From a bacterium (GTDB lineage: Bacteria; Krumholzibacteriota; Krumholzibacteriia; LZORAL124-64-63): a stretch of DNA of 33,481 nt. Each line of letters begins with the position of its first letter. The stretch's first letter is position 1. Below the pieces are notes generated by a model. That model was not told where the DNA came from, did not search any database, and saw only the letters and a program-made list of their open reading frames with translations. Location of the stretch: positions 1 through 33,481 of the forward strand of contig JANOEP010000068.1 in the NCBI GenBank assembly GCA_031441465.1, given 5' to 3'. Position numbers and translations under genes: made by a program. Of this stretch, positions 5,742 to 29,793 are shown one piece after another.

Positions 5742-6691
5742 CGCAGGACAGCCCCGAGCGTCTGGCCGCCGACCTGGCCCGCTACCTCGTCCAGCAGCAG
5801 CAGGACGGGACCGCCTGGTACTACGACGAGGGTCCGGTCGCCGCGACCGCCGCCCGCGCGGAGAACGAGGAGACCGCGACGCCCGTCGCACTCCAGCCTC
5901 CAGCGCCCGCCGGTCCGGATGCCGACGCGGCGGCGGCCGCGAAGCAGGCGCGCGAGCAGGAATTCCGCAGCGAGTGCGAGCGCTTCGTGCGCGAGACGCT
6001 GGCGCAGATCCGCAGCCGCCCGCCCGCGTCGCCGCCGCCGCCGCCGCCGGCTCCCGCCGCCCCGAACCTGTTCGCCGCGACTGTGAGCGCGGCGCCGGCC
6101 GCGGCGCCGGTCCCCGTGTCGAAACGGCTGGCGCTGGAGGCGATGGCCGCCGAGGTGGCCGTCTGCACGGCCTGCAAGCTGCACCCCACGCGCACGCAAA
6201 CGGTCTTCGGCAGCGGCAACCCCGACGCGCGCGTGCTCTTCATCGGCGAGGCGCCCGGCCGCAACGAGGACGAACAGGGGCTGCCGTTCGTCGGCCGCGC
6301 CGGCCAGCTGCTGACCGACATCCTGCGCGCCATCCGCTTCGAGCGCGACGAGGTCTACATCTGCAACATCCTGAAGTGCCGCCCGCCCGAGAACCGCGAC
6401 CCCGAGCGCGACGAGGCCGACGCCTGCGAACCCTTCCTGCGCCGGCAGCTCGCGATCATCCAGCCGCACCTGATCTGCTGCCTCGGCCGCCACGCCGCGA
6501 TGACGCTGCTGGACAGCCGAGCCAGCCTGCGCTCCCTGCGCGAGAGCGTGCACTTCTACCAGGGCATCCCCGTGCTGGCGACCTTCCATCCCGCCGCGCT
6601 GCTGCGCAACCCGCACTGGAAGCGCGACACCTGGGAGGACGTGCGCAAGCTGCGCGCCCTGCACGACGCGCTGCTCGCGGGCGCCTCCTGA
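5738..6691 (+). CDS. Uracil-DNA glycosylase family 4 (Fe-S) with long Pro/Ala-rich N-terminal extension
   Basis: [54 protein letters not shown] overlap with the coaBC stop. Confidence 0.92.
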
Positions 6692-6695
6692 CCCC

Positions 6696-7577
6696 TCACC
6701 GCCGGGAAATCAGCATCGCGAATTCGTGCCGGGCGTCCACGCCGGTGATCGGCGGCAGGAAGACGCCGCCGCCGAGGCCGGCGGCCGCGCACAGGGCCGC
6801 GAGGTCCTCGTCGCGCCAGGCGCGCCCGCTCTGCGCGTAACGCTCCACCGCCCCCGTCGCGGCGTCCACGATCCAGTGGACGTTGATCTCGGACTGCGAC
6901 GCGTCGTCCCAGTGGTATTCCTGCAGCCAGAAATGGGGACGGTCGGCGAACGGCGAACGGTCGCACGCCCGCCACTCCAGTAGGTCCTCGCGCGGGTAGA
7001 GTTCCCAGGGCTGGTATTCCAGGACCATCAGGCCGCCGGGACGCAGACGCTGCGCGAGGTCGGTCAGCGCGGCGAGCATCGCGCCGGGCGGGTGGGCGTG
7101 GACCTCGCCGTACCACAGCGTCACCGCGTCGAGATCGGCGACGTCGTCGGGCAGCGGCGGGACCGGAGCCTCGACGTCGAGGTCGAGGAACACACACGTC
7201 AGGTCTTCGGCGGCGGCGGACGCGCGCGCGTGGCGCAGCGCCGCCGGCGCCACGTCGCCGCCCCAGGCACGGTGGCCGCGGCGCGCCAGTTCGAGGCAGT
7301 AGAGGCCGGGACCGCAGGCGACGTCCAGCACGCGGCGCGGCGCGGCGGCGCCGAAGACCTCGGACAGCCGGGTCTCCAGCCAGCCGACGTGGGCGGCGAT
7401 CACCGGCAGGGTGCGGCTCGCCATGTGCGTCGACTGATCCAGGTGCAGGCGCAACATGCGCTCGCTGAAGGCGGGATCGGCCCAGGGAAACGCGGCCCCG
7501 TCCCGCCAGGGTTGCGCGGGGCGCGGCTCGGCGGCGATTCGGGCCCAGGTTTCGCTGAGTTGTCCACCGTCGGGCAT
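6696..7577 (-). CDS. Class I SAM-dependent methyltransferase
   Basis: VLDVACGPG motif I, FSERMLRLHL..ASR N-terminal pattern, LRPGG; GGAGG RBS before ATG 7577. Confidence 0.85.
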   Translation of the reverse strand: MPDGGQLSETWARIAAEPRPAQPWRDGAAFPWADPAFSERMLRLHLDQSTHMASRTLPVIAAHVGWLETRLSEVFGAAAPRRVLDVACGPGLYCLELARRGHRAWGGDVAPAALRHARASAAAEDLTCVFLDLDVEAPVPPLPDDVADLDAVTLWYGEVHAHPPGAMLAALTDLAQRLRPGGLMVLEYQPWELYPREDLLEWRACDRSPFADRPHFWLQEYHWDDASQSEINVHWIVDAATGAVERYAQSGRAWRDEDLAALCAAAGLGGGVFLPPITGVDARHEFAMLISRR

Positions 7578-7914: not shown

Positions 7915-9279
7915 GTGGAACCCGAACTCAGCCCCCTGCCCAACGAGATGCGGCGCGCCGCCGAGACCCGGCAACCGCCCCAGAACCTCGACGCCGAACG
8001 CGCCATCCTCGGCGCGGTCATGCTCGACCGCGACGCGCTGGGCGTCGCGCTCGAGTCGATCCGGCCCGACGACTTCTACCGCCGCGAGCACCGCATCATC
8101 TTCGGGGTCATGTGCGACCTCTACGAGAACGACCAGGCCATCGACGGCATCACGGTCGCCGAGGAACTGGAGCGCCGCGGCGAACTGCTCAAGTGCGGCG
8201 GCAACGACTACCTCGCCGACATCATCGCCGCGACCGCCACGGCCGCGAACGTCGCCTACCACGGGCGCATCGTCCGGGACAAGTCGGTGCTGCGGGGGCT
8301 GATCCACGCCTCGGGCGAGATCACCACCGACGCCTTCGCCGCCCGCGAGGAGACCGACACCATCCTCGACCGCGCCCAGACGCGCATCTACGCCATCGCG
8401 GAGAACCGCGAGACGCAGGCCTTCGCGTCGGTCCGCGACGTCGTGCCGGAGGCGTTCCGGCGCATCGACGAGGCGTCGCGCTCCAAGAGCGACATCACCG
8501 GCCTGTCCACCGGCTTCGTGGAGTTCGACCGCATCACCGCCGGCCTGCAGCGCGGCGACCTGATCGTGCTGGCGGCGCGGCCGTCGATGGGCAAGACGGC
8601 GCTGGCGTTGAACGTCGCCTACAGCGCCGCGGTGAAGGAGAAGGTGCCCGTCGCGATCTTCAGCCTGGAAATGGCCAAGGAGCAGCTCGTCATGCGCATG
8701 ATCTGCGCCAGCGGGGGCTTCAACAACCACGAGCTGCGCAAGGGCCAGATCAAGGCCGAGCAGTGGCCCAAGCTGACCGAGGCCTGCAGCCGCCTGTCCG
8801 AGGCGCCCATCTTCATCGACGACTCCAGCGGCATCGGCGTACTCGAGATGAAGTCCAAGGCGCGCCGGCTCAAGCAGCAGCACGACGTCGGCCTGATCAT
8901 CGTGGACTACATGCAGCTGATGACGTCCACCTCGCGCGCCGAGAACCGCCAGCAGGAGATCTCGCAGATCAGCCGCAACCTCAAGGGCATGGCCAAGGAC
9001 CTCGATGTGCCCGTCATGGCGCTCAGTCAGCTCTCGCGCGCCGTCGAGTCGCGCGGCGACCACAAGCCCATGCTCTCGGACCTGCGCGAGTCGGGTTCCA
9101 TCGAGCAGGATGCCGACGTGGTCATGTTCATCTATCGTGAGGAGTACTACAAGCCGGACGACGAGACCGTGCGCAACAAGGCGACGGTGATCGTCGGCAA
9201 GCAGCGCAACGGGCCCATCGGCCAGTTCGACCTGCACTTCCACAAGTCGTTCACGCGTTTCGCCGACCTGCAGCACTGA
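7915..9279 (+). CDS. dnaB: Replicative DNA helicase
   Basis: PPQNLDAERAILG, AARPSMGKT Walker A, IFSLEM, IVDYMQL, LSQLSR, SDLRESGSIEQDAD, KQRNGP; GTG 7915 with GAGGA RBS (ATG 7948 is an alternative start). Confidence 0.97.
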   Translation: MEPELSPLPNEMRRAAETRQPPQNLDAERAILGAVMLDRDALGVALESIRPDDFYRREHRIIFGVMCDLYENDQAIDGITVAEELERRGELLKCGGNDYLADIIAATATAANVAYHGRIVRDKSVLRGLIHASGEITTDAFAAREETDTILDRAQTRIYAIAENRETQAFASVRDVVPEAFRRIDEASRSKSDITGLSTGFVEFDRITAGLQRGDLIVLAARPSMGKTALALNVAYSAAVKEKVPVAIFSLEMAKEQLVMRMICASGGFNNHELRKGQIKAEQWPKLTEACSRLSEAPIFIDDSSGIGVLEMKSKARRLKQQHDVGLIIVDYMQLMTSTSRAENRQQEISQISRNLKGMAKDLDVPVMALSQLSRAVESRGDHKPMLSDLRESGSIEQDADVVMFIYREEYYKPDDETVRNKATVIVGKQRNGPIGQFDLHFHKSFTRFADLQH

Positions 9280-9314
9280 GCGCGGGCGGCCGGACCGCAG
9301 GGGATGCCGACGCG

Positions 9315-9923
9315 ATGACCGCTCCCGAGCTGCGCCGGATCACGGGCCTGCCCCTGTTCCCGCTGCCCGACACCTTCCTGTTCCCGGGCGCCCTGGTGCC
9401 CCTGCACGTCTTCGAGCCGCGGTACCGGCAGATGGTCGGCGACCTGCTGGACACCGCCGGACGCCTGGCGCTGGGCTGCCTGGACCCCGCCGGCGTCCCG
9501 CGACCGGTGGGGCCGGCGGTACTGCCCGTGGCCGGGCTGGGCGAGATCGTCAGCCACCGGCGGCTCGACGACGGCCGCTACCTGATCTGGCTGCTGGGGC
9601 TCGACCGCCTGCGGATCGCGGAGGCGCCGAGCGACCGCCTGTACCGCCGCGTCTTCGCCGACGTCCTGGACGACGAACCCGGCGACGCCGAACTGAACGC
9701 GAGGCTGGCCCCGCGGCTGCGCGACGCGGTCGCCTCGCGCATGCTGCCCGGCGTGCAGCTGTCCGACGGCCTGGACACCGGGCTGCTCGCCGACCTCCTC
9801 TTCCAGCACCTGCCGTTGCCGCGCGAGCGCAAGGCGTGGGCCATGGCCGAGCGGAACGTCACGCGACGAGCCGAGACGGCCTTGGCCTGGCTCGCCGGTC
9901 TCGCCGACGCGGCCGAAGCCTGA
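9315..9923 (+). CDS. Stand-alone Lon protease substrate-binding (N) domain protein
   Basis: LPLFPLP..LFPG..VPLHVFEPRYRQMV, DDGRY; no AAA+ or protease domain. Confidence 0.85.
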   Translation: MTAPELRRITGLPLFPLPDTFLFPGALVPLHVFEPRYRQMVGDLLDTAGRLALGCLDPAGVPRPVGPAVLPVAGLGEIVSHRRLDDGRYLIWLLGLDRLRIAEAPSDRLYRRVFADVLDDEPGDAELNARLAPRLRDAVASRMLPGVQLSDGLDTGLLADLLFQHLPLPRERKAWAMAERNVTRRAETALAWLAGLADAAEA

Positions 9924-20140: not shown

Positions 20141-23100
20141 ATGAGATCCCGTCCGATCACCCTCACGGTCGCGCTGGCCGCGGTTTGCCTCGTCGCGTCG
20201 GCCGTCGCCGCCGCCCCCGCGCCTTCCGCCGCGGTGAGCCGCGCGCTCGCGGACCCCGCTTTCGCCGGCCGTGCCGCCGACGGGACCATCGCCGTCTGGG
20301 TCTGGTTCCAGGACAAGGGTCTGCAGGGGGACGCCCTCGGGCGCGCCCTGGACGCCGCCGAGCGCGGCCTGGGCGAGCGCGCCGCCGCCCGCCGCGCGAA
20401 ATCGGCGGTCGAGGCGAGCGACCGCCTGGCCGACATCACCGACCTGCCGCTGCACCGCCCCTACCTCGACGCGGCTCAGGAGACCGGCGCGCGGTTGCGC
20501 CGCGAATCCCGCTGGCTCAACGCCGCCAGCTTCGACGCGCAGCCGGACCAGGTGCGCGCCATGACGGCGCTGCCGTGCGTGCGCGAGGTGACGCTGGTGC
20601 GGCGCGCGCAGCCCCGACCCGCGCCCGCGGTTCCCGAGATCGCCGCGGCGGTTCCGGCGGACAAGAACGCCGCCTGGTCGATCGACTACGGCGCCACGCT
20701 CCCGGATCTCGAGCAGATCAACGTGCCGGCCCTGCACGAGGAGGGCGTTCACGGCCAGGGCGTGCTGATCGGCATGATGGATTCGGGCTTCCGCACCAGC
20801 CACGTGTCGCTGGCCGGCCTGCCGGTGCTCGACCGCTGGGACTTCGTCAACGGCGACGGCGTCGTGGAGAACGAGCCGGGCGACCCGAGCACCCAGGACG
20901 ACCACGGCACCAAGACGATGTCCACCGTCGGCGGCTACGATCCGGGCAGCCACGTCGGGCCGGCCTATGGCGCCTCGTTCGTGCTGGCCAAGACCGAGGA
21001 CGTGTCGCAGGAGGTGCCTGCCGAGGAGGACAACTGGGTCGCGGGCATCGAGTGGCTCGATACCTTCGGCGTCGACGTGGTCAGCAGCTCGCTGGGCTAC
21101 ATCGACTGGTACACCGTCGCGGATCTGGACGGCGACACCGCCGCCTGCACCATCGCGGCCGACCTGGCCGTCGGCAAGGGCATCGTGGTCTGCAACTCCG
21201 CCGGCAACGAGCGCGGTTCGAGCTGGAACGCCCTGGTCACGCCCGCCGACGGCGACAGCGTGATCACCGCCGGCGCGGTCACCAGCACCGGCGCCCTCTC
21301 GTACTTCTCCTCGCCCGGACCGACGGCCGACGGGCGCACCAAGCCCGACGTCTGCGCGCTGGGCTCGGGCAACCACGTCGCCAACCCTTCGGGCGGCTAC
21401 ACCACCGCCTCGGGCACCTCGTTCTCCTGCCCGCTGACCGCCGGCGTGGCGGCCCTAGTGCTGTCGCGCGTGCCCTCGCTGACGCCCCTGCAGGTGCGCG
21501 AGGCCCTGCGCATGACGGCCGACCGCGCCGCCACTCCCGACAACGATTTCGGCTGGGGCATCCTGGACGCCCATGCCGCCGCGCACTACTTCGGCGCTTC
21601 GATCGCCCACGCGCCGCTCGGCGACACCGAGCAGACGGCGGGCTCGTACGCCGTGACCTGCACGATCACCGACCGTGTCGCCCTGACGCCCGCCGAGCTG
21701 CAGCTGCACTGGCGGGCCGACGCCGGCGTGTGGCAGCAGGTCCAGCTCGCGCCCGCGGGCGGCGACGACTTCGCGGCGGCGATCCCCGCGCAGGCCGCCG
21801 GCGTCGTCGTGAGCTACTACCTGACCGCCGGTGATGTCCTGGGCATCCCGGCGGCGCTGCCGGCCGCGGCCCCGGCGACAGTCTTCTCCTTCCGCGTCGG
21901 CGCGGACGTCACGCCGCCGCAGATCGCGCACACGCCGCTGGGCGACCAGCCGCGGCTGACCTGGCCGCCGCTGGTCCGCGCCACGGTGACCGACAACCTC
22001 GGGCTGGCCGACGTCGGCGTGGCGTTCACCTGGAACGGCGTCCCGCAGCCGGAGTTCGCCCTGGTCGACCAGGGCGCCGGCGCCTACGGTGCCGCGTTCC
22101 CGATCGCCGCCGGTTCGGTCCAGGTGGGCGACACTTTCGTCTACACCGTCGTCGCCCACGACGCGGCGGCCGCGCCCAACACCGCGAGCGACGGACCGCA
22201 CGCCTTCACGGTCATCGACGCCCTGGGCGTGGCCCTGGTCATCGACGACACCGCCGCCAAGGCGGACGACGTCAAGTTCGACGAGCACAAGCGCTCCCTC
22301 GACGCGCCGGATCCGGCCAAGGCCGCCGCCGCGGACCTGGACCGCTGGCTGCGCGAGGCTGGCTACGTCACCGACGTCGTCGACGCCGGCGCCGTGGGCG
22401 CGGACGATTTCACGGGCAAGCAGTTCGTGGTGCTGACCTGCGGCGCCAACACCGCGCCGGTCGCCGACGCGCCGCTGCGGGTCCTGCTGCAGAACTGGGC
22501 CGCGGCCGGCGGCAAACTGCTGGTCGAGGGCGGCGAGGTGGCCTACGACGCGGTCTCTTCACCCGGATACCCCGACTTCGCCGCGCAGGTGCTGCACGCC
22601 GGCTCCTGGCGCAGCGACAACGCCGGCGCCCTGAACCTGGCGCCGGGCATGGCGTCGCACCCGGTGGCGACGAACCCGCACGTGTTGCCCGCGACGCTGA
22701 ACCTGACCTACGTCGGCTACGGCGACGAGGACGCCGTCGATCCCGCCGCCGACGCCACGGTGATCTACGGCACCGCCGGCTACGCCGCGTCCGCGGGCGT
22801 GATGGTCCACGACGACAACCCGGCGCCCCAGGCCGGTCAGATCGTGGTGCTGGCTCTGAACGTCGGCGCCCTGACCGACACGACGGCCGCCAAGCACCTC
22901 GTCGAGAACGCAGCGGCGTACCTGATGGCCGACGAGGGGCCGGCGAGCGGCTCGATCTCCGGTCTCGTGTGGACCGTGGCGGGTGGGGCCTACGTGCCGC
23001 TGGCCGGCGCCGCGGTCGACGCCGGCGCGGGTCACACCGCGATCTCCGACGGCAACGGGCACTTCAGCCTCGACGACCTCTATGCCGGCACCTACGTCGT

Positions 23101-23893
23101 GACGGCCGTCAGCGCGGGCCTGAGCACGGACGTCGCGACGGTGGTGGTCGGGGAGGGCCAGGCCGCGGAGGCCTACTTCCGGCTCGTGCCGGTCACGCAA
23201 CTCGAGTTCGACAACGTCACGCCGGCGGCGATCCCGGACAACAACACCACGGGCATCCTCTCGATCATCCACGTCGGGACGGCCGGCACGGTCGCGGATC
23301 TGAACCTCGACCTGAACGTGACGCACACCTGGCGGGGCGACCTGATCGTCGAGTTGAAGTCGCCCGCCGGCACCGTGGTCCGCCTGCACAACCGCAGCGG
23401 CAGCTCCAGCGACAACATCCTGGGCAACTACCCGGGCACGCTGGTGGTGGAAGGGCCGGGGGCGCTCGCGGACTTCGTCGGCGAGTCGATCGTCGGCGAC
23501 TGGACGCTGCGGATCTCCGACGTGGTCAGCACCGACACCGGCACCCTGAACAGCTGGGGCCTGAACCTGATCCTGCCGACGGACCTCACCGCGGCGCCGG
23601 AGACGCCGCACACGGCCGTCCGCCTGCTGCCCAACCGGCCCAACCCGTTCAACCCGCGCACCGAGATCCGCTTCGAACTCGCGCGCGACGGCGCGCCGCG
23701 GTTGGCCGTCTACGACGTGCGCGGCCAACGGGTGCGGGAACTGCTGGCGGGCGAACCCCTGGCCGCGGGCGCGCACGCCGTGGTCTGGGACGGGCGCGAC
23801 GACGCGGGACGCGAGGTCCCGAGCGGCCTCTACCTGGCGCGGCTGATCGCCGAGGGCGTCCGCCTGGATCGGAAGTTGCTCTTGGCGCGCTAA
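20141..23893 (+). CDS. Secreted multidomain S8 (subtilisin-like) serine peptidase with P-domain and C-terminal FlgD-Ig/T9SS-CTD-like domain
   Basis: Signal peptide; catalytic MDSG, DHGT, SAGN, GTSFSCP; P-domain (IPDN..THTWRGDL..GDWTLRISD..GTLNSW); tail PNPFNPRTEIRF..VYDVRGQRVR..WDGRDDAG..SGLYLARL. Confidence 0.92.
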   Translation: MRSRPITLTVALAAVCLVASAVAAAPAPSAAVSRALADPAFAGRAADGTIAVWVWFQDKGLQGDALGRALDAAERGLGERAAARRAKSAVEASDRLADITDLPLHRPYLDAAQETGARLRRESRWLNAASFDAQPDQVRAMTALPCVREVTLVRRAQPRPAPAVPEIAAAVPADKNAAWSIDYGATLPDLEQINVPALHEEGVHGQGVLIGMMDSGFRTSHVSLAGLPVLDRWDFVNGDGVVENEPGDPSTQDDHGTKTMSTVGGYDPGSHVGPAYGASFVLAKTEDVSQEVPAEEDNWVAGIEWLDTFGVDVVSSSLGYIDWYTVADLDGDTAACTIAADLAVGKGIVVCNSAGNERGSSWNALVTPADGDSVITAGAVTSTGALSYFSSPGPTADGRTKPDVCALGSGNHVANPSGGYTTASGTSFSCPLTAGVAALVLSRVPSLTPLQVREALRMTADRAATPDNDFGWGILDAHAAAHYFGASIAHAPLGDTEQTAGSYAVTCTITDRVALTPAELQLHWRADAGVWQQVQLAPAGGDDFAAAIPAQAAGVVVSYYLTAGDVLGIPAALPAAAPATVFSFRVGADVTPPQIAHTPLGDQPRLTWPPLVRATVTDNLGLADVGVAFTWNGVPQPEFALVDQGAGAYGAAFPIAAGSVQVGDTFVYTVVAHDAAAAPNTASDGPHAFTVIDALGVALVIDDTAAKADDVKFDEHKRSLDAPDPAKAAAADLDRWLREAGYVTDVVDAGAVGADDFTGKQFVVLTCGANTAPVADAPLRVLLQNWAAAGGKLLVEGGEVAYDAVSSPGYPDFAAQVLHAGSWRSDNAGALNLAPGMASHPVATNPHVLPATLNLTYVGYGDEDAVDPAADATVIYGTAGYAASAGVMVHDDNPAPQAGQIVVLALNVGALTDTTAAKHLVENAAAYLMADEGPASGSISGLVWTVAGGAYVPLAGAAVDAGAGHTAISDGNGHFSLDDLYAGTYVVTAVSAGLSTDVATVVVGEGQAAEAYFRLVPVTQLEFDNVTPAAIPDNNTTGILSIIHVGTAGTVADLNLDLNVTHTWRGDLIVELKSPAGTVVRLHNRSGSSSDNILGNYPGTLVVEGPGALADFVGESIVGDWTLRISDVVSTDTGTLNSWGLNLILPTDLTAAPETPHTAVRLLPNRPNPFNPRTEIRFELARDGAPRLAVYDVRGQRVRELLAGEPLAAGAHAVVWDGRDDAGREVPSGLYLARLIAEGVRLDRKLLLAR

Positions 23894-27379: not shown

Positions 27380-27958
27380 ATGCCGCCGATGAAATCGAAC
27401 CACGCGCTAATCGTCCTGTCGGCCCTGGCCGTCGTCGTCGCGGTGCCCGCCGTCGCCCAGACCGGCTATTCCGTCCTGTGCCTGTCGGCCGCGCCCGGGG
27501 CCTACGTCGCGGAGCTGAGCGTGCCCTACGGCGAGGACTTCGACCTCTACGTCATCCTGGCCGGTCCCGAGGTCGGCGTGCCGCTGTCGTGGCGGCTCGA
27601 CACCGTCGACTGGGCCGTGCTGGGGAGTTGCTGCGGCGGTTCACCGGCGTTCCTGATCGGATCGGAACTCGGGGGCGCTCCGCTCGCCCACGACGGGGAT
27701 CCCGTCATCGGCGTGCGCACCACGTCGGCCGGCTGCGTCCAGCAGGACGTGATCACGCTGGCGCGTTTGAGCTTCACTTGGGTCTACGAACCGACCGGCC
27801 CGTTTTTCCTCGGTGCGGCCGCCCTCGCGCCGGCCTTCTCCTGCGACGGTCCGGCGCAGATCCTCGACGGACGTTCGCTGCGGATCGTGCCGACCGGCAT
27901 CACGCCGGCGGCGGCGGCGTCGAGTTGGGGAGAGGTCAAATCGCTCTACCGCGACTGA
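27380..27958 (+). CDS. Exported hypothetical protein with C-terminal SSWGEVKSLYR motif
   Basis: Signal peptide (ALIVLSALAVVVAVPAVA), five Cys, Ala linker then SSWGEVKSLYRD; GGGAGAG RBS (ATG 27389 is an alternative start). Confidence 0.78.
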   Translation: MPPMKSNHALIVLSALAVVVAVPAVAQTGYSVLCLSAAPGAYVAELSVPYGEDFDLYVILAGPEVGVPLSWRLDTVDWAVLGSCCGGSPAFLIGSELGGAPLAHDGDPVIGVRTTSAGCVQQDVITLARLSFTWVYEPTGPFFLGAAALAPAFSCDGPAQILDGRSLRIVPTGITPAAAASSWGEVKSLYRD

Positions 27959-27972
27959 GCCGGACGACCGCG

Positions 27973-28641
27973 TCAGTCGTCGCCGAGCCCCGAGCGGTAG
28001 CGGCCGCTGACGGGATCCTTGTAGACTTTCACCTGGCGGTACAACTTGATGCCGACCCGGCCAGCCGCGACCTCCCGGAAGAGGTGGTCGAGGCAGCCGG
28101 CGAGGTCGTCCATCTGCTCGCTGATGCTCTCGAGGCGCGCGTGCAGGGCGGCTTCGTCCGTGGTGCCGCCGGCGGTGGAGAGTTCCTCGCGGATGTGGTA
28201 GAGCTTGAGGGCGAGGACCGTGATGCGGTCGACGATGCTGCCCGGGGACTCGGAGTTCAGAGGCGCCCCGGCGCGGGGGAGGCCCTCGCGCGCCAGTACG
28301 CCCATGATTTCCACGTCCAGGGCTTCGATGGCCTGCACGCGGCGGGCGTTGGAGGCGTCGATCGAGCGCTTGACGGCGGCCAGCACTTCGTCGCCGGCGC
28401 CGTGGGCGCGGCTGCGGTCCTCCTCGTGCCACTGGTAGGTGTTCACGAGCTGCAGCAGCTCGGAGATGCCCGCCCAGCCGCGGTGTTCGGGAGCCAGGAT
28501 GTCCAGCGCGTTCTGCCACGAGCCCAGCCGCGGCTCGTGGAGGTGCCAGCGGTCGATGACGTGCCACAGGATGGGCAGCAGCGTGCCGGAATTCGGCACG
28601 GCGCCGGGTTGCAGAGTGTCGGTGGTGTCTGGATGGGTCAT
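27973..28641 (-). CDS. DUF4254-like protein
   Basis: NTYQWHEED..R, KRSIDASNARR...IE.LD, NSESPGSIVDRITVLALKLYH, KLYRQVKVY. Confidence 0.8.
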   Translation of the reverse strand: MTHPDTTDTLQPGAVPNSGTLLPILWHVIDRWHLHEPRLGSWQNALDILAPEHRGWAGISELLQLVNTYQWHEEDRSRAHGAGDEVLAAVKRSIDASNARRVQAIEALDVEIMGVLAREGLPRAGAPLNSESPGSIVDRITVLALKLYHIREELSTAGGTTDEAALHARLESISEQMDDLAGCLDHLFREVAAGRVGIKLYRQVKVYKDPVSGRYRSGLGDD

Positions 28642-28752: not shown

Positions 28753-29793
28753 ATGACGCGAACGACGACGATCCCACGGCTCCTGCTGCTCCTGCTGCTG
28801 CTGTCGGCCGCCGCCGCGCCCGCCGTCGGCGCCCCCGCGGAAGCCGCCCGTCCGGACTTGGTGCCGCTGCACCCGGCGGTCGGCGACACCGTCGACGCCC
28901 GCGAGGCCGCCCGTTGGGGTCTGTTCCCCGACCTGCCGGGACTGACGGGAGTCGTGTTCACGCTCGGCCCGCGCGGCGGCTACCTGGCGCGGTTGACGGT
29001 CGCCGGCGACCCGCCCGGCACGACCCGCGAACGCAACGTGCCGCGTGCGCAGTGGGAGCAGTGGCGCCGGAACCTCGACGCGGGTGAAACCGTCACGGGG
29101 GCCGTGCCGGAGGTGAACCGCGAGTCCGCGGTCTGGCCCGAAGTGCCCTTGCCGGACACCGCCGCCCGTCGCCCCGGGCCGCGTCCCGGTCTGCCGCCGG
29201 CCGGAGCCGGACCGCCGGGCCGCTGGCTCCTGATGACGGACCTCGGCTGGAAGCACGCCACCACCGCCTTCGGCGACTACTTCACCGACATGCTGCGCGT
29301 CTCGGTCGCGGTCGGCCTGCCGCTGGGCGAGAATTTCCTGGCCACCGCCGGCCTGCAGCTGGGCCTCGGCGACCTGCAGGACGACTTCGAGGACCTGACC
29401 AACAACGGCCGCTCGGCCCATTACGGGATCGAACTCGGCGGGCGGGCGTTGCTGCCGGTCGGCGAGCGCACGGACGCGGTGCTGGGCGTGCGCGGCGGGT
29501 ACTACCTGCGCTCCCTGCGCTGGGGCGGCACGCTGTTCTGGGGTTACGGCACGGTCTACCAGAGCGGTTCGCTGGTGCGCGAGATGTCCGACTGGGGCGG
29601 CGGCCTCGACGTCGGCCTGCGCCGGCGTCTCGGCGAGGCGGGTTCCCGCCGCTGGCTCACGGCGACCCTGCACGCCGAGACCTACGCCGCCGACCCGGTG
29701 CTCCTGGAGGACGCGACCAACGGCAACCGGCTGATTGCCGACGATCACGACGACTGGATCGGCGTGTCCATCGGTCTGGTCATGGGCATCTAA
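28753..29793 (+). CDS. Exported hypothetical protein, probable C-terminal outer-membrane beta-barrel
   Basis: Signal peptide (LLLLLLLLSAAAAPAVG), Pro-rich linker, amphipathic Gly/aromatic strands; GGGAG RBS. Confidence 0.7.
   Translation: MTRTTTIPRLLLLLLLLSAAAAPAVGAPAEAARPDLVPLHPAVGDTVDAREAARWGLFPDLPGLTGVVFTLGPRGGYLARLTVAGDPPGTTRERNVPRAQWEQWRRNLDAGETVTGAVPEVNRESAVWPEVPLPDTAARRPGPRPGLPPAGAGPPGRWLLMTDLGWKHATTAFGDYFTDMLRVSVAVGLPLGENFLATAGLQLGLGDLQDDFEDLTNNGRSAHYGIELGGRALLPVGERTDAVLGVRGGYYLRSLRWGGTLFWGYGTVYQSGSLVREMSDWGGGLDVGLRRRLGEAGSRRWLTATLHAETYAADPVLLEDATNGNRLIADDHDDWIGVSIGLVMGI

Follow-up and report, generated by a model that had tools for sequence, protein, structure and literature searches.

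The subject of this report is a short peptide, subsequently called the tail or tag, which terminates a small exported protein encoded in a stretch of 33,481 nucleotides from a bacterium of the Krumholzibacteriota (assembly GCA_031441465.1, contig JANOEP010000068.1, positions 1 to 33,481; this whole stretch is designated the window). A first-pass annotation of the DNA, made without database searches, had read the gene as coding for a signal-peptide protein that ends in a TPAAAA linker plus a WGxxK tail, which is borne out by the sequence. The parts of the gene, as well as a protease gene of the window whose product ends in a C-terminal domain (CTD) of the machinery for type IX secretion (T9SS), are as follows:

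20141..23893, + strand: gene of an S8 protease of 1250 amino acids (aa) with a FlgD-type T9SS CTD at its end (Pfam matches to Peptidase_S8, P_proprotein and FlgD_ig (PF13860), the latter at residues 1186-1232)
27380..27958, + strand: gene of the tail-bearing exported protein (192 aa from the ATG at 27380 or 189 aa from the ATG at 27389; list of open reading frames (ORFs) and translation)
27380..27460, + strand: Sec signal peptide MPPMKSNHALIVLSALAVVVAVPAVAQ (read from the sequence; score of the hydrophobic region 3.17)
27473..27895, + strand: predicted folded core, a cohesin-like beta-sandwich comprising residues 29-169 as counted from the ATG at 27389 (AlphaFold2 and Foldseek)
27896..27919, + strand: flexible linker G-I-T-P-A-A-A-A (alignment and drop in the predicted local distance difference test score, pLDDT)
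27920..27955, + strand: tag core S-S-W-G-E-V-K-S-L-Y-R-D (alignment of homologues and tail hidden Markov model, HMM)
27956..27958, + strand: stop codon TGA, located one residue beyond the usual end of the tag (sequence)

The window protein ends in ...RIVPTGITPAAAASSWGEVKSLYRD-stop. Its tail, SSWGEVKSLYRD, is preceded by the TPAAAA linker, and positions 27895-27958 correspond to GITPAAAASSWGEVKSLYRD and the stop codon. The third codon positions of the gene have a GC content (GC3) of 0.82. No Pfam or NCBIfam model matched the protein, and the 15 homologues retrieved from a large protein collection are all 'hypothetical' or unnamed and devoid of Pfam domains; longer homologues were not found in a protein-database search. 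In an alignment of 13 homologues, which has a mean column identity of 62%, the tail residues T172, P173, A175, W180, G181 and K184 are invariant, and the linker reads G-I-T-P-A-E. One homologue possesses about nine additional residues at the end of the tail.

Structure prediction by AlphaFold2, based on the alignment of homologues, yielded a beta-sandwich with a pLDDT of ~90 for residues 29-169 and an N-terminal helix of low pLDDT at residues 4-18, i.e. in the region of the signal peptide. Across the final two blocks of 10 residues the pLDDT falls to 59 and then 47, and a short helix was modelled at residues 180-186 with values below 50. Foldseek retrieved cohesin modules as top matches of the body (best match 2vo8, E = 4.6e-5, TM-score 0.69 on the target). 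As a linker and a helix of low confidence follow a confidently predicted beta-sandwich, the tail appears as an appendage outside the fold and, according to the model, is not part of the body.

The tail is not a peculiarity of the window protein, as became apparent from the whole genome (3.49 Mb with 69.6% GC, 96.8% complete; 74 contigs, to which the C-numbers below refer). The regular expression WG.[VILMA]K..[YF] matched 47 times in six-frame ORFs, and 46 of these matches end 0-3 residues short of the stop codon, while 0.6 matches anywhere and 0.014 at ORF C-termini are expected by chance from composition; the reversed expression matched twice. An HMM built from the tails and applied to whole ORFs detected 69 ORFs at scores of at least 10.6 bits, the next best ORF reaching 7.1 bits and the tail of the window protein 26.5 bits. 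All 69 tails end 0-3 residues from the stop codon, in agreement with the C-terminal restriction that the first-pass annotation had postulated. Stripped of signal peptide and tail, the 69 ORFs were sorted by BLAST into 52 clusters of at most 5 members. The analyses below refer to three subsets of these ORFs, namely 67 proteins of at least 100 aa, 60 tail genes contained in the gene calls, and 52 tails ending in an aromatic residue plus R/K, which were used for a sequence logo.

The consensus of the genome is V-(A/P)-N-E-x-x-(S/T)-W-(G/S)-x-(V/I)-K-x-L-Y-R; in the window protein, the linker G-I-T-P-A-A-A-A occupies the place of the V-(A/P)-N-E block. In the logo, which reads V(-16) A/P N E x x S/T W(88%)/F G(80%)/S x V/I K(100%) A/S L/M Y/F R(88%)/K, the W/F position is conserved to 99%, lysine occupies position -5 in 52/52 tails, an aromatic residue stands at -2 and a basic residue at -1 (R in 88%, K in 11%). 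The variants S-W-S and S-F-G are also present among the tails detected by the HMM. The aromatic position is followed by 0 residues in 6, by 1 in 52, by 2 in 7 and by 3 in 2 of the 67 tails. The tag comprises 17-20 residues. A cysteine is located 5-18 residues before the tryptophan in 35/67 tails. The tail has no transmembrane helix, as had been noted for the window protein: a mean Kyte-Doolittle value of 1.6 over 15 residues is reached within the last 45 residues by 3/67 tails only, and in none after the motif. The earlier description of the tail as an amphipathic ~12-mer fared less well if read as a helix, since beside the short helix modelled by AlphaFold2 stand its low pLDDT and a hydrophobic moment of 0.46 for helix and strand alike, by which these two are not separated.

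A signal peptide could be recognized by eye in 46/46 proteins matching the regular expression. A heuristic likewise assigned signal peptides to 57/60 tail genes as compared to 818/2070 other gene calls (Fisher p = 2e-19), this heuristic being crude and the gene calls rough (2130 genes covering 77% of the genome). The enrichment for exported proteins anticipated at the outset is thus evident. With a median length of 227 aa, the carriers are small.

Most of the 67 tail proteins have no family match, and the remainder are mutually unrelated. Pfam matches above cut-off on their bodies comprise LTD (three proteins), CBM20, CHRD, DUF642, TSP3 repeats, cohesin, Temptin_C and Kre9_KNH, and matches below cut-off PPC, CBM_4_9 and DUF3108. 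NCBIfam adds the choice-of-anchor families C, E and J (two), DNRLRE, an MtsC-like TSP3 region and the N-terminal regions of ExeM/NucH. A second cohesin-like carrier besides the window protein is L181, and carriers in relatives include a beta-helix with PMP repeats and a weak match to GEVED. The first-pass annotation had pointed to similar tails on many unrelated exported proteins, which agrees with this list. The tail itself escapes both collections: in the 67 proteins no Pfam model (E up to 0.01) or NCBIfam model (E up to 0.1), CTERM models included, aligns with it. When the last 40 residues of one tail protein were used to search a protein database, only its orthologues were retrieved (6 proteins). 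By NCBI's naming, 'choice-of-anchor' families are domains that occur with alternative sorting signals, and such domains and similar ones elsewhere carry PEP-CTERM, LPXTG, MYXO-CTERM or T9SS tags. By analogy, the bodies of the carriers are surface-type domains, which would point to a role at the surface.

The window S8 protease, which ends in ...GLYLARLIAEGVRLDRKLLLAR, had been read as an example of the alternative ending, and its FlgD_ig match supports this assignment. The genome encodes SprA, a full-length PorU beside a PorV-like barrel and five further barrels of the PorV family. FlgD-type CTDs terminate 119 ORFs with a median length of 815 aa, as compared to 69 shorter ORFs terminated by the tail, and none of the ORFs has both. 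The relation between the two endings is best seen in the tail protein C64:54637-55452 (271 aa), which shares 67, 56 and 40% identity with C36:11387-12715, C18:419-1522 and C40:10312-12645, respectively. Homology to the three paralogues stops at the same linker; the paralogues then proceed with ...YPNPFNP...GVYLARL...LQLVR, whereas the tail protein ends in ...VTPNADSSWGEVKAAWR where they carry a CTD of ~90 residues. The idea that the tail is a truncated CTD was rejected, as no remnant of a CTD is left upstream of the tail in this alignment. Altogether, 8 tail bodies have paralogues without tail in the genome, and among 11 hits listed 10 end in a CTD by eye; a regular expression for the CTD flagged 3. 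Judged from these alignments, tail and CTD are interchangeable among paralogues and positionally equivalent, and the tail does stand where other proteins carry the FlgD/T9SS-like ending, as had been suggested.

The two endings are also linked in gene order. A CTD gene is found within two genes of 27/60 tail genes, as compared to 15% among the remaining genes (odds ratio 4.5, p = 9e-8) and to 19% among the remaining small genes for signal-peptide proteins. Nine tail genes are immediate neighbours of CTD genes on the same strand, with gaps of 9-1002 nt. Four tail proteins encoded on C44 are paralogous, at 36-61% identity, to the N-terminal domain of a CTD protein of 841 aa encoded next to them, C44:21041-23566. 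In addition, the extreme ends are alike: the CTDs follow the pattern R K/R M/L/V x L V/L R/K and the tails V/I K A/S L/M Y/F R/K. The lysine at -5 of the tails may have a counterpart in this genome's CTDs, which have K/R at -6 in 82%, i.e. the spacing differs by one residue. In a study on Flavobacterium translocon structures, the conserved motifs of type A CTDs are described to specify the fold, except for a near-invariant and functionally important lysine close to the C-terminus which contacts PorV, and the role of this lysine itself is treated as unsettled (PMC10994853). The parallel between the lysine of the tail and that of the CTD is no more than suggestive.

Several side observations concern the arrangement of these genes. 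The barrels of the PorV family are located at C10:157175-158281, C54:18113-19213, C29:42763-44007, C47:about 6040-7166, C72:up to 44000 and C49:from 42144. Each of the six adjoins a large protein, five of which end in a T9SS-type CTD; judged from its end, the large neighbour of the C72 barrel has none, and a CTD is encoded by the gene directly upstream. This arrangement resembles pairs of cargo and cognate barrel. The C47 pair is directly followed by a tail gene (8920-9705). An operon at C49:35228-50444 encodes a giant CTD protein, a PorV-like barrel with TPR, ExbB/ExbD/TonB-like proteins and an OmpA-like protein, and about 2 kb downstream two paralogous tail genes with ExeM/NucH-like N-terminal regions are found (C49:52557-54139). 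Eight tail genes are located within 36 kb at C44:19883-55687. In the window, a DUF4254 gene (27973-28641, - strand) is convergent with the tail gene, 15 bases beyond the stop codon of the latter; next to it follows a gene on the + strand (28753-29793) for a signal-peptide protein of 346 aa without Pfam match.

To which lineages the tail is confined was addressed with a DNA pattern encoding W-G-x-(V/I/M)-K-x-x-(Y/F)-(R/S)-stop. This pattern matched 197/208 genomes of the window's GTDB phylum and 116/125 of the high-quality ones. A single genome contains as many as 47 matches, and that of the window contains 26; the reversed pattern gave 2 matches in total over the 208 genomes. The matches use all synonymous codons (GGN, GTN/ATH, AAR, TAY/TTY, CGN/AGR) and all three stop codons. 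Because synonymous codons and stop codons are used freely, the conserved object is the peptide rather than the DNA, and by this codon evidence selection acts on the tag at the peptide level. Free variation at synonymous positions also led us to reject a DNA repeat or mobile cassette as origin of the tail.

A stricter pattern, applied to one genome per species (185,579 prokaryotic species), revealed at least 124 public loci. Among the 124 matches listed, 123 have an open frame of 30 codons, 113 have S/T before the tryptophan, although this was not required by the pattern, the upstream consensus is (V/T)-P-(V/T/A)-(E/R), and a cysteine is located shortly upstream of the tail in 72. For comparison, the linker motif is V-(A/P)-N-E in the genome of the window and (V/T)-P-(V/T)-(E/R) phylum-wide. 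The NCBI titles among the matches listed (80) name Eisenbacteria 27 times, Fibrobacteraceae/Fibrobacter 9 times, Krumholzibacteria 5 times, Latescibacteria 3 times, Zixibacteriota, Verrucomicrobiia and 'Effluviviaceae' once each, and 'bacterium' alone 33 times. These names have to be read with care. Genomes labelled Latescibacteria, Fibrobacteraceae, Krumholzibacteriota and Fibrobacter sp. contain 23, 29, 26 and 27 pattern matches, respectively, and all four belong to the window's GTDB phylum, because searches centred on each of them return the same genomes. Since one GTDB phylum carries several NCBI labels, statements on phylum distribution that are based on labels are unreliable. Genomes labelled Krumholzibacteria, Latescibacteria and Eisenbacteria do carry the tail, as the first-pass annotation had stated, but its distribution over several phyla dissolves largely into one GTDB phylum under different names.

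In the neighbouring phylum, to which a genome labelled Zixibacteria belongs, the pattern occurs in 4/41 genomes with one match each. Three genomes of this phylum (G275:C21:51125-51154, G291:C6:18714-18743 and G302:C8:23561-23590) contain one gene each that ends in W-G-K-I-K-A-L-F-R-stop; the three genes may represent one conserved orthologue with a related tail. As far as tested, with Poribacteria outside the comparison, the pattern searches identify the tag as a trait of one GTDB phylum. A clean tag-negative lineage was not found inside the phylum: family f3, considered as a negative set, looked empty with the W-G pattern applied to the 208 genomes, yet it holds W-S variants of the tail.

We also looked for proteins that could recognize or process the tag. 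PorU matches 208/208 genomes of the window's phylum. The PorV orthologue was discarded as a discriminating reader, as it is present in 24/25 relatives including f3, and so was the barrel encoded on C54, which is found with 48-64% identity in 5/5 tail-poor and with 48-51% identity in 5/5 tail-rich genomes. The C54 barrel, located beside a CTD protein of 944 aa, is probably PorQ-like. Ten tail loci in tail-poor genomes revealed neither a conserved neighbour nor a common 'core' tail protein. Exosortase (PF09721) and sortase (PF04203) gave no match in the genome, rhombosortase and CPBP-type myxosortases not being included in this search. As the tag lacks a membrane segment and the genome lacks a sortase or exosortase match, the tag is not readable in the usual way by an intramembrane sorting enzyme. 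The genome encodes four YkuD-type L,D-transpeptidases and five S41 peptidases, families that match 7/14 and 10/14 control genomes, respectively. Four of the S41 peptidases are unusually large, with open frames of 1106-1203 aa (C69:4590-5057, C9:123475-123903, C8:38284-38751 and C9:144968-145441), and the fifth has the ordinary size of Ctp enzymes (580 aa, C66). A complete-looking cluster on C48, resembling type II secretion system (T2SS) or type IV pilus genes, comprises a GspF-like protein, four N-methyl pseudopilins, the only secretin of the genome, an ATPase and a prepilin peptidase. Among the neighbours of tail genes, small groups with 2-4 members each (RND pumps, ABC ATPases, transposase-like proteins, ECF sigma factors and AAA ATPases) provided no lead. 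A protein of ~366 aa starting with ...PPHCPNPNC.. is encoded in four copies near tail genes (C11:95253-96353, C39:100473-101573, C64:35001-36098 and C67:1-841) and resembles the transposase of a multicopy element.

The tag thus exists as a strictly C-terminal element on many unrelated signal-peptide proteins, occurs phylum-wide, is swapped with the CTD and is linked to T9SS cargo genes. From these observations we infer a role of the tag in localisation, the cell surface as its destination and an involvement of the T9SS. The explanation that we favour, and which we regard as fairly probable on the basis of the sequence comparisons, is that the tag serves as a short sorting or docking tag of the envelope or surface, which acts in parallel to and is probably linked with the T9SS and has a lineage-specific reader. 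The address would reside in the portable last 17-20 residues, composed of the flexible linker motif and a core with invariant lysine, (S/T)-W-(G/S)-x-(V/I)-K-x-(L/M)-(Y/F)-(R/K)-COOH. It would be carried by Sec-exported, mostly small single-domain proteins of the surface type (cohesin-like, LTD, CBM, CHRD, choice-of-anchor C/E/J, DNRLRE, TSP3, beta-helix). Following export by Sec, the folded body would bear the tag as a free appendage, to which the reader, residing in the periplasm or the outer membrane, could bind. The reader would then pass the protein across the outer membrane or hold it on the cell surface. If export or retention is mediated by such a reader, the tag plays the role that the FlgD-type CTD of ~90 residues has on the large T9SS cargo of the same cells. 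Most probably the tag would work with the T9SS apparatus, for instance via one of the six PorV-family barrels.

A number of observations weigh against this explanation. No reader was found in the neighbourhoods of the own genome: among 332 genes no further than four genes from a tail gene, CTD cargo is the only large family to recur (30). The PorV orthologue and the PorQ-like barrel, the two barrels profiled among the six, are equally conserved in tail-rich and tail-poor genomes. PorU is present in 21/21 genomes searched of the neighbouring phylum, in which the tail pattern is restricted to the few genomes mentioned above, and its presence in a nearly tag-free phylum means that the T9SS alone does not bring the tag. 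The likeness between the ends of tail and CTD covers 3-4 positions only and, as stated, places the lysine at another distance. The published T9SS signal is described as a folded seven-stranded Ig-like domain (10.1101/483123). A peptide of 18 residues cannot form such a domain. Finally, the secretin cluster on C48 offers another possible route of export.

A bolder version of the favoured explanation, which we consider possible but doubtful, sees in the tag part of an undescribed, self-contained envelope sorting system of this phylum with its own reader and possibly its own chemistry, i.e. cleavage in the V-P-x-E linker and covalent linkage of the new C-terminus to a surface polymer. If true, bacteria would for the first time be seen to use a sorting signal distinct from folded domains and membrane-spanning tripartite signals alike. 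The system would handle about 2-3% of the proteome and would have evolved beside the T9SS to put small binding modules on the cell surface.

Alternatively, the tail could be a docking peptide and not an export signal: as a minimal ligand resembling dockerin, it would bind without covalent linkage to a hub at the surface or in the periplasm. As hub, one could think of an abundant barrel of the outer membrane or of a domain within the large T9SS cargo whose gene lies next door, and the small modules would assemble onto CTD proteins or ride out with them. This would account for the gene order, as 45% of the tail genes but only 33% of the CTD genes themselves have a CTD gene within two genes and the nine same-strand pairs look co-transcribed, and also for the kinship of the four C44 tail proteins with a domain of their CTD neighbour. 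Tail proteins are small single modules, and the window protein and L181 have a cohesin-like fold, which mediates docking between proteins. The distance between motif and carboxyl group, which varies by 0-3 residues and by ~nine extra residues in one homologue, fits a peptide ligand better than the site of a carboxylate-specific enzyme. However, the near-identical tails of 69 proteins would compete for one site, no hub has been identified, no tail protein has a dockerin-type Pfam match, and a tail that is cleanly exchanged for the CTD among paralogues is easier to reconcile with an equivalent role in targeting than with an accessory one. On balance, pure docking appears unlikely.

Still less likely is a tether in the periplasm, in which the invariant lysine would be cross-linked to peptidoglycan by an L,D-transpeptidase, or the tail would bind to the wall or to the outer membrane's inner face, so that the CTD paralogue goes outside while the tail paralogue stays inside. 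A division of paralogues between periplasm and surface is biologically sensible, all tails (100%) contain the lysine, with an aromatic residue and then a basic one after it (Y-R or Y-K), and the four YkuD-type enzymes could provide the activity. But the last residue is mostly arginine and the lysine is internal, YkuD enzymes are ubiquitous as opposed to a tag in one phylum, and the bodies are domains that elsewhere bear surface anchors.

Comparably improbable, and if anything a shade more so, is a cleavable pro-peptide or degradation tag without a role in localisation, which an S41/Ctp-type protease would remove for activation or timed turnover. The strictly C-terminal position of the motif, its two blocks, i.e. 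linker motif and recognition core, which resemble a cleavage site with a handle, and the five S41 peptidases, four of them unusually large, would suit this idea. S41 enzymes are near-universal, however, binding modules and enzymes as unrelated as these bodies share no need for activation, and the swap with the CTD as well as the linkage to T9SS cargo would be left unexplained.

A secretin-based (T2SS-like) route or a wholly separate outer-membrane translocon unconnected to the T9SS is very unlikely, for although the cluster on C48 looks complete, the T9SS alone does not predict the tag and the GlyGly-CTERM cargo of Vibrio and Shewanella are T2SS substrates, which sets a precedent for a C-terminal tag on T2SS cargo, this cluster may encode a type IV pilus, the tail genes are not near it but linked to T9SS cargo instead, and T2SS substrates are not known to use a linear signal.

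C-terminal sorting tags determine how bacteria decide on the content of their surface, and newly defined tags (LPXTG, PEP-CTERM, the T9SS domain, GlyGly-CTERM) each led to a new enzyme or machine. About 69 proteins in a genome of 3.5 Mb bear the present tag, which occurs in 197/208 species of a widespread, wholly uncultured phylum of soil and sediment. As it is invisible to Pfam and NCBIfam, almost all of its carriers are annotated as 'hypothetical'; a model of the tag would flag a large coherent set of probable surface proteins and would make the search for the reader tractable. The tag is also a natural test of how short a sequence can be and still route a folded protein at the outer membrane in a bacterium equipped with a T9SS. 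We found no account of this tag in the literature, most subscription journals being outside the reach of the search, so that its absence from print is not proven. The initial proposal of a candidate for an undescribed secretion or anchoring signal is supported by these data as far as a function inferred from sequence can be, no curated model covering the tail.

How does the tag compare with known sorting systems? Its closest counterpart is the type A CTD of the T9SS (TIGR04183/PF18962; here the FlgD_ig-like PF13860). Both are located at the extreme C-terminus of Sec-exported proteins after a short linker, both are attached to many unrelated bodies, occur in the same genomes and gene neighbourhoods and are swapped in paralogues, and both end in Lys/Arg followed by Leu, a hydrophobic and a basic residue. 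The tag, however, has 17-20 residues as compared to 70-100 in the CTD, lacks the Ig-like fold and the NPFNP and GxY motifs, sits on smaller carriers (median 227 versus 815 aa) and is confined to one phylum, while the T9SS is distributed much wider. None of the 67 tail proteins matches one of the three models at the E-values given above, whereas the S8 protease of the window matches PF13860.

Tripartite sortase-type signals such as LPXTG, PEP-CTERM, GlyGly-CTERM and MYXO-CTERM have a design that is described in 10.1101/2023.06.07.544157. Like them, the tag is a short signature at the C-terminus, shared by many exported proteins of one lineage that are otherwise unrelated and present on 'choice-of-anchor' domains, and it often has a cysteine shortly upstream. 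It differs in having no transmembrane helix and one basic residue (a single R/K in 52/67 tails) rather than a cluster of arginines. The WGxxGxxG-CTERM signal (NF038039), which is described as resembling the tripartite signals (10.1101/2023.06.07.544157) and has no known sorting enzyme, also contains W-G in its C-terminal motif, and neither this nor any other CTERM model matched the 67 tail proteins at E up to 0.1.

A membrane segment is likewise missing from Braun's lipoprotein, with which the tag shares the aromatic-basic end and a key lysine. Braun's lipoprotein ends in Y-R-K, its C-terminal lysine is linked to peptidoglycan by L,D-transpeptidases, and it acts in the periplasm. In the tag the lysine is internal at -5 and the last residue mostly arginine, the carriers are not lipoproteins, and the tag is lineage-specific while YkuD enzymes are not. 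The dockerin of cellulosomes, finally, is a calcium-binding duplicated domain of ~70 residues, as opposed to a peptide of 18 residues without such a repeat, and PF00404 has no match in the 67 tail proteins. Like dockerins, though, the tag is a C-terminal appendage on diverse secreted modules which could plug into a common receptor, and some of its carriers, including the window protein, are themselves cohesin-like.

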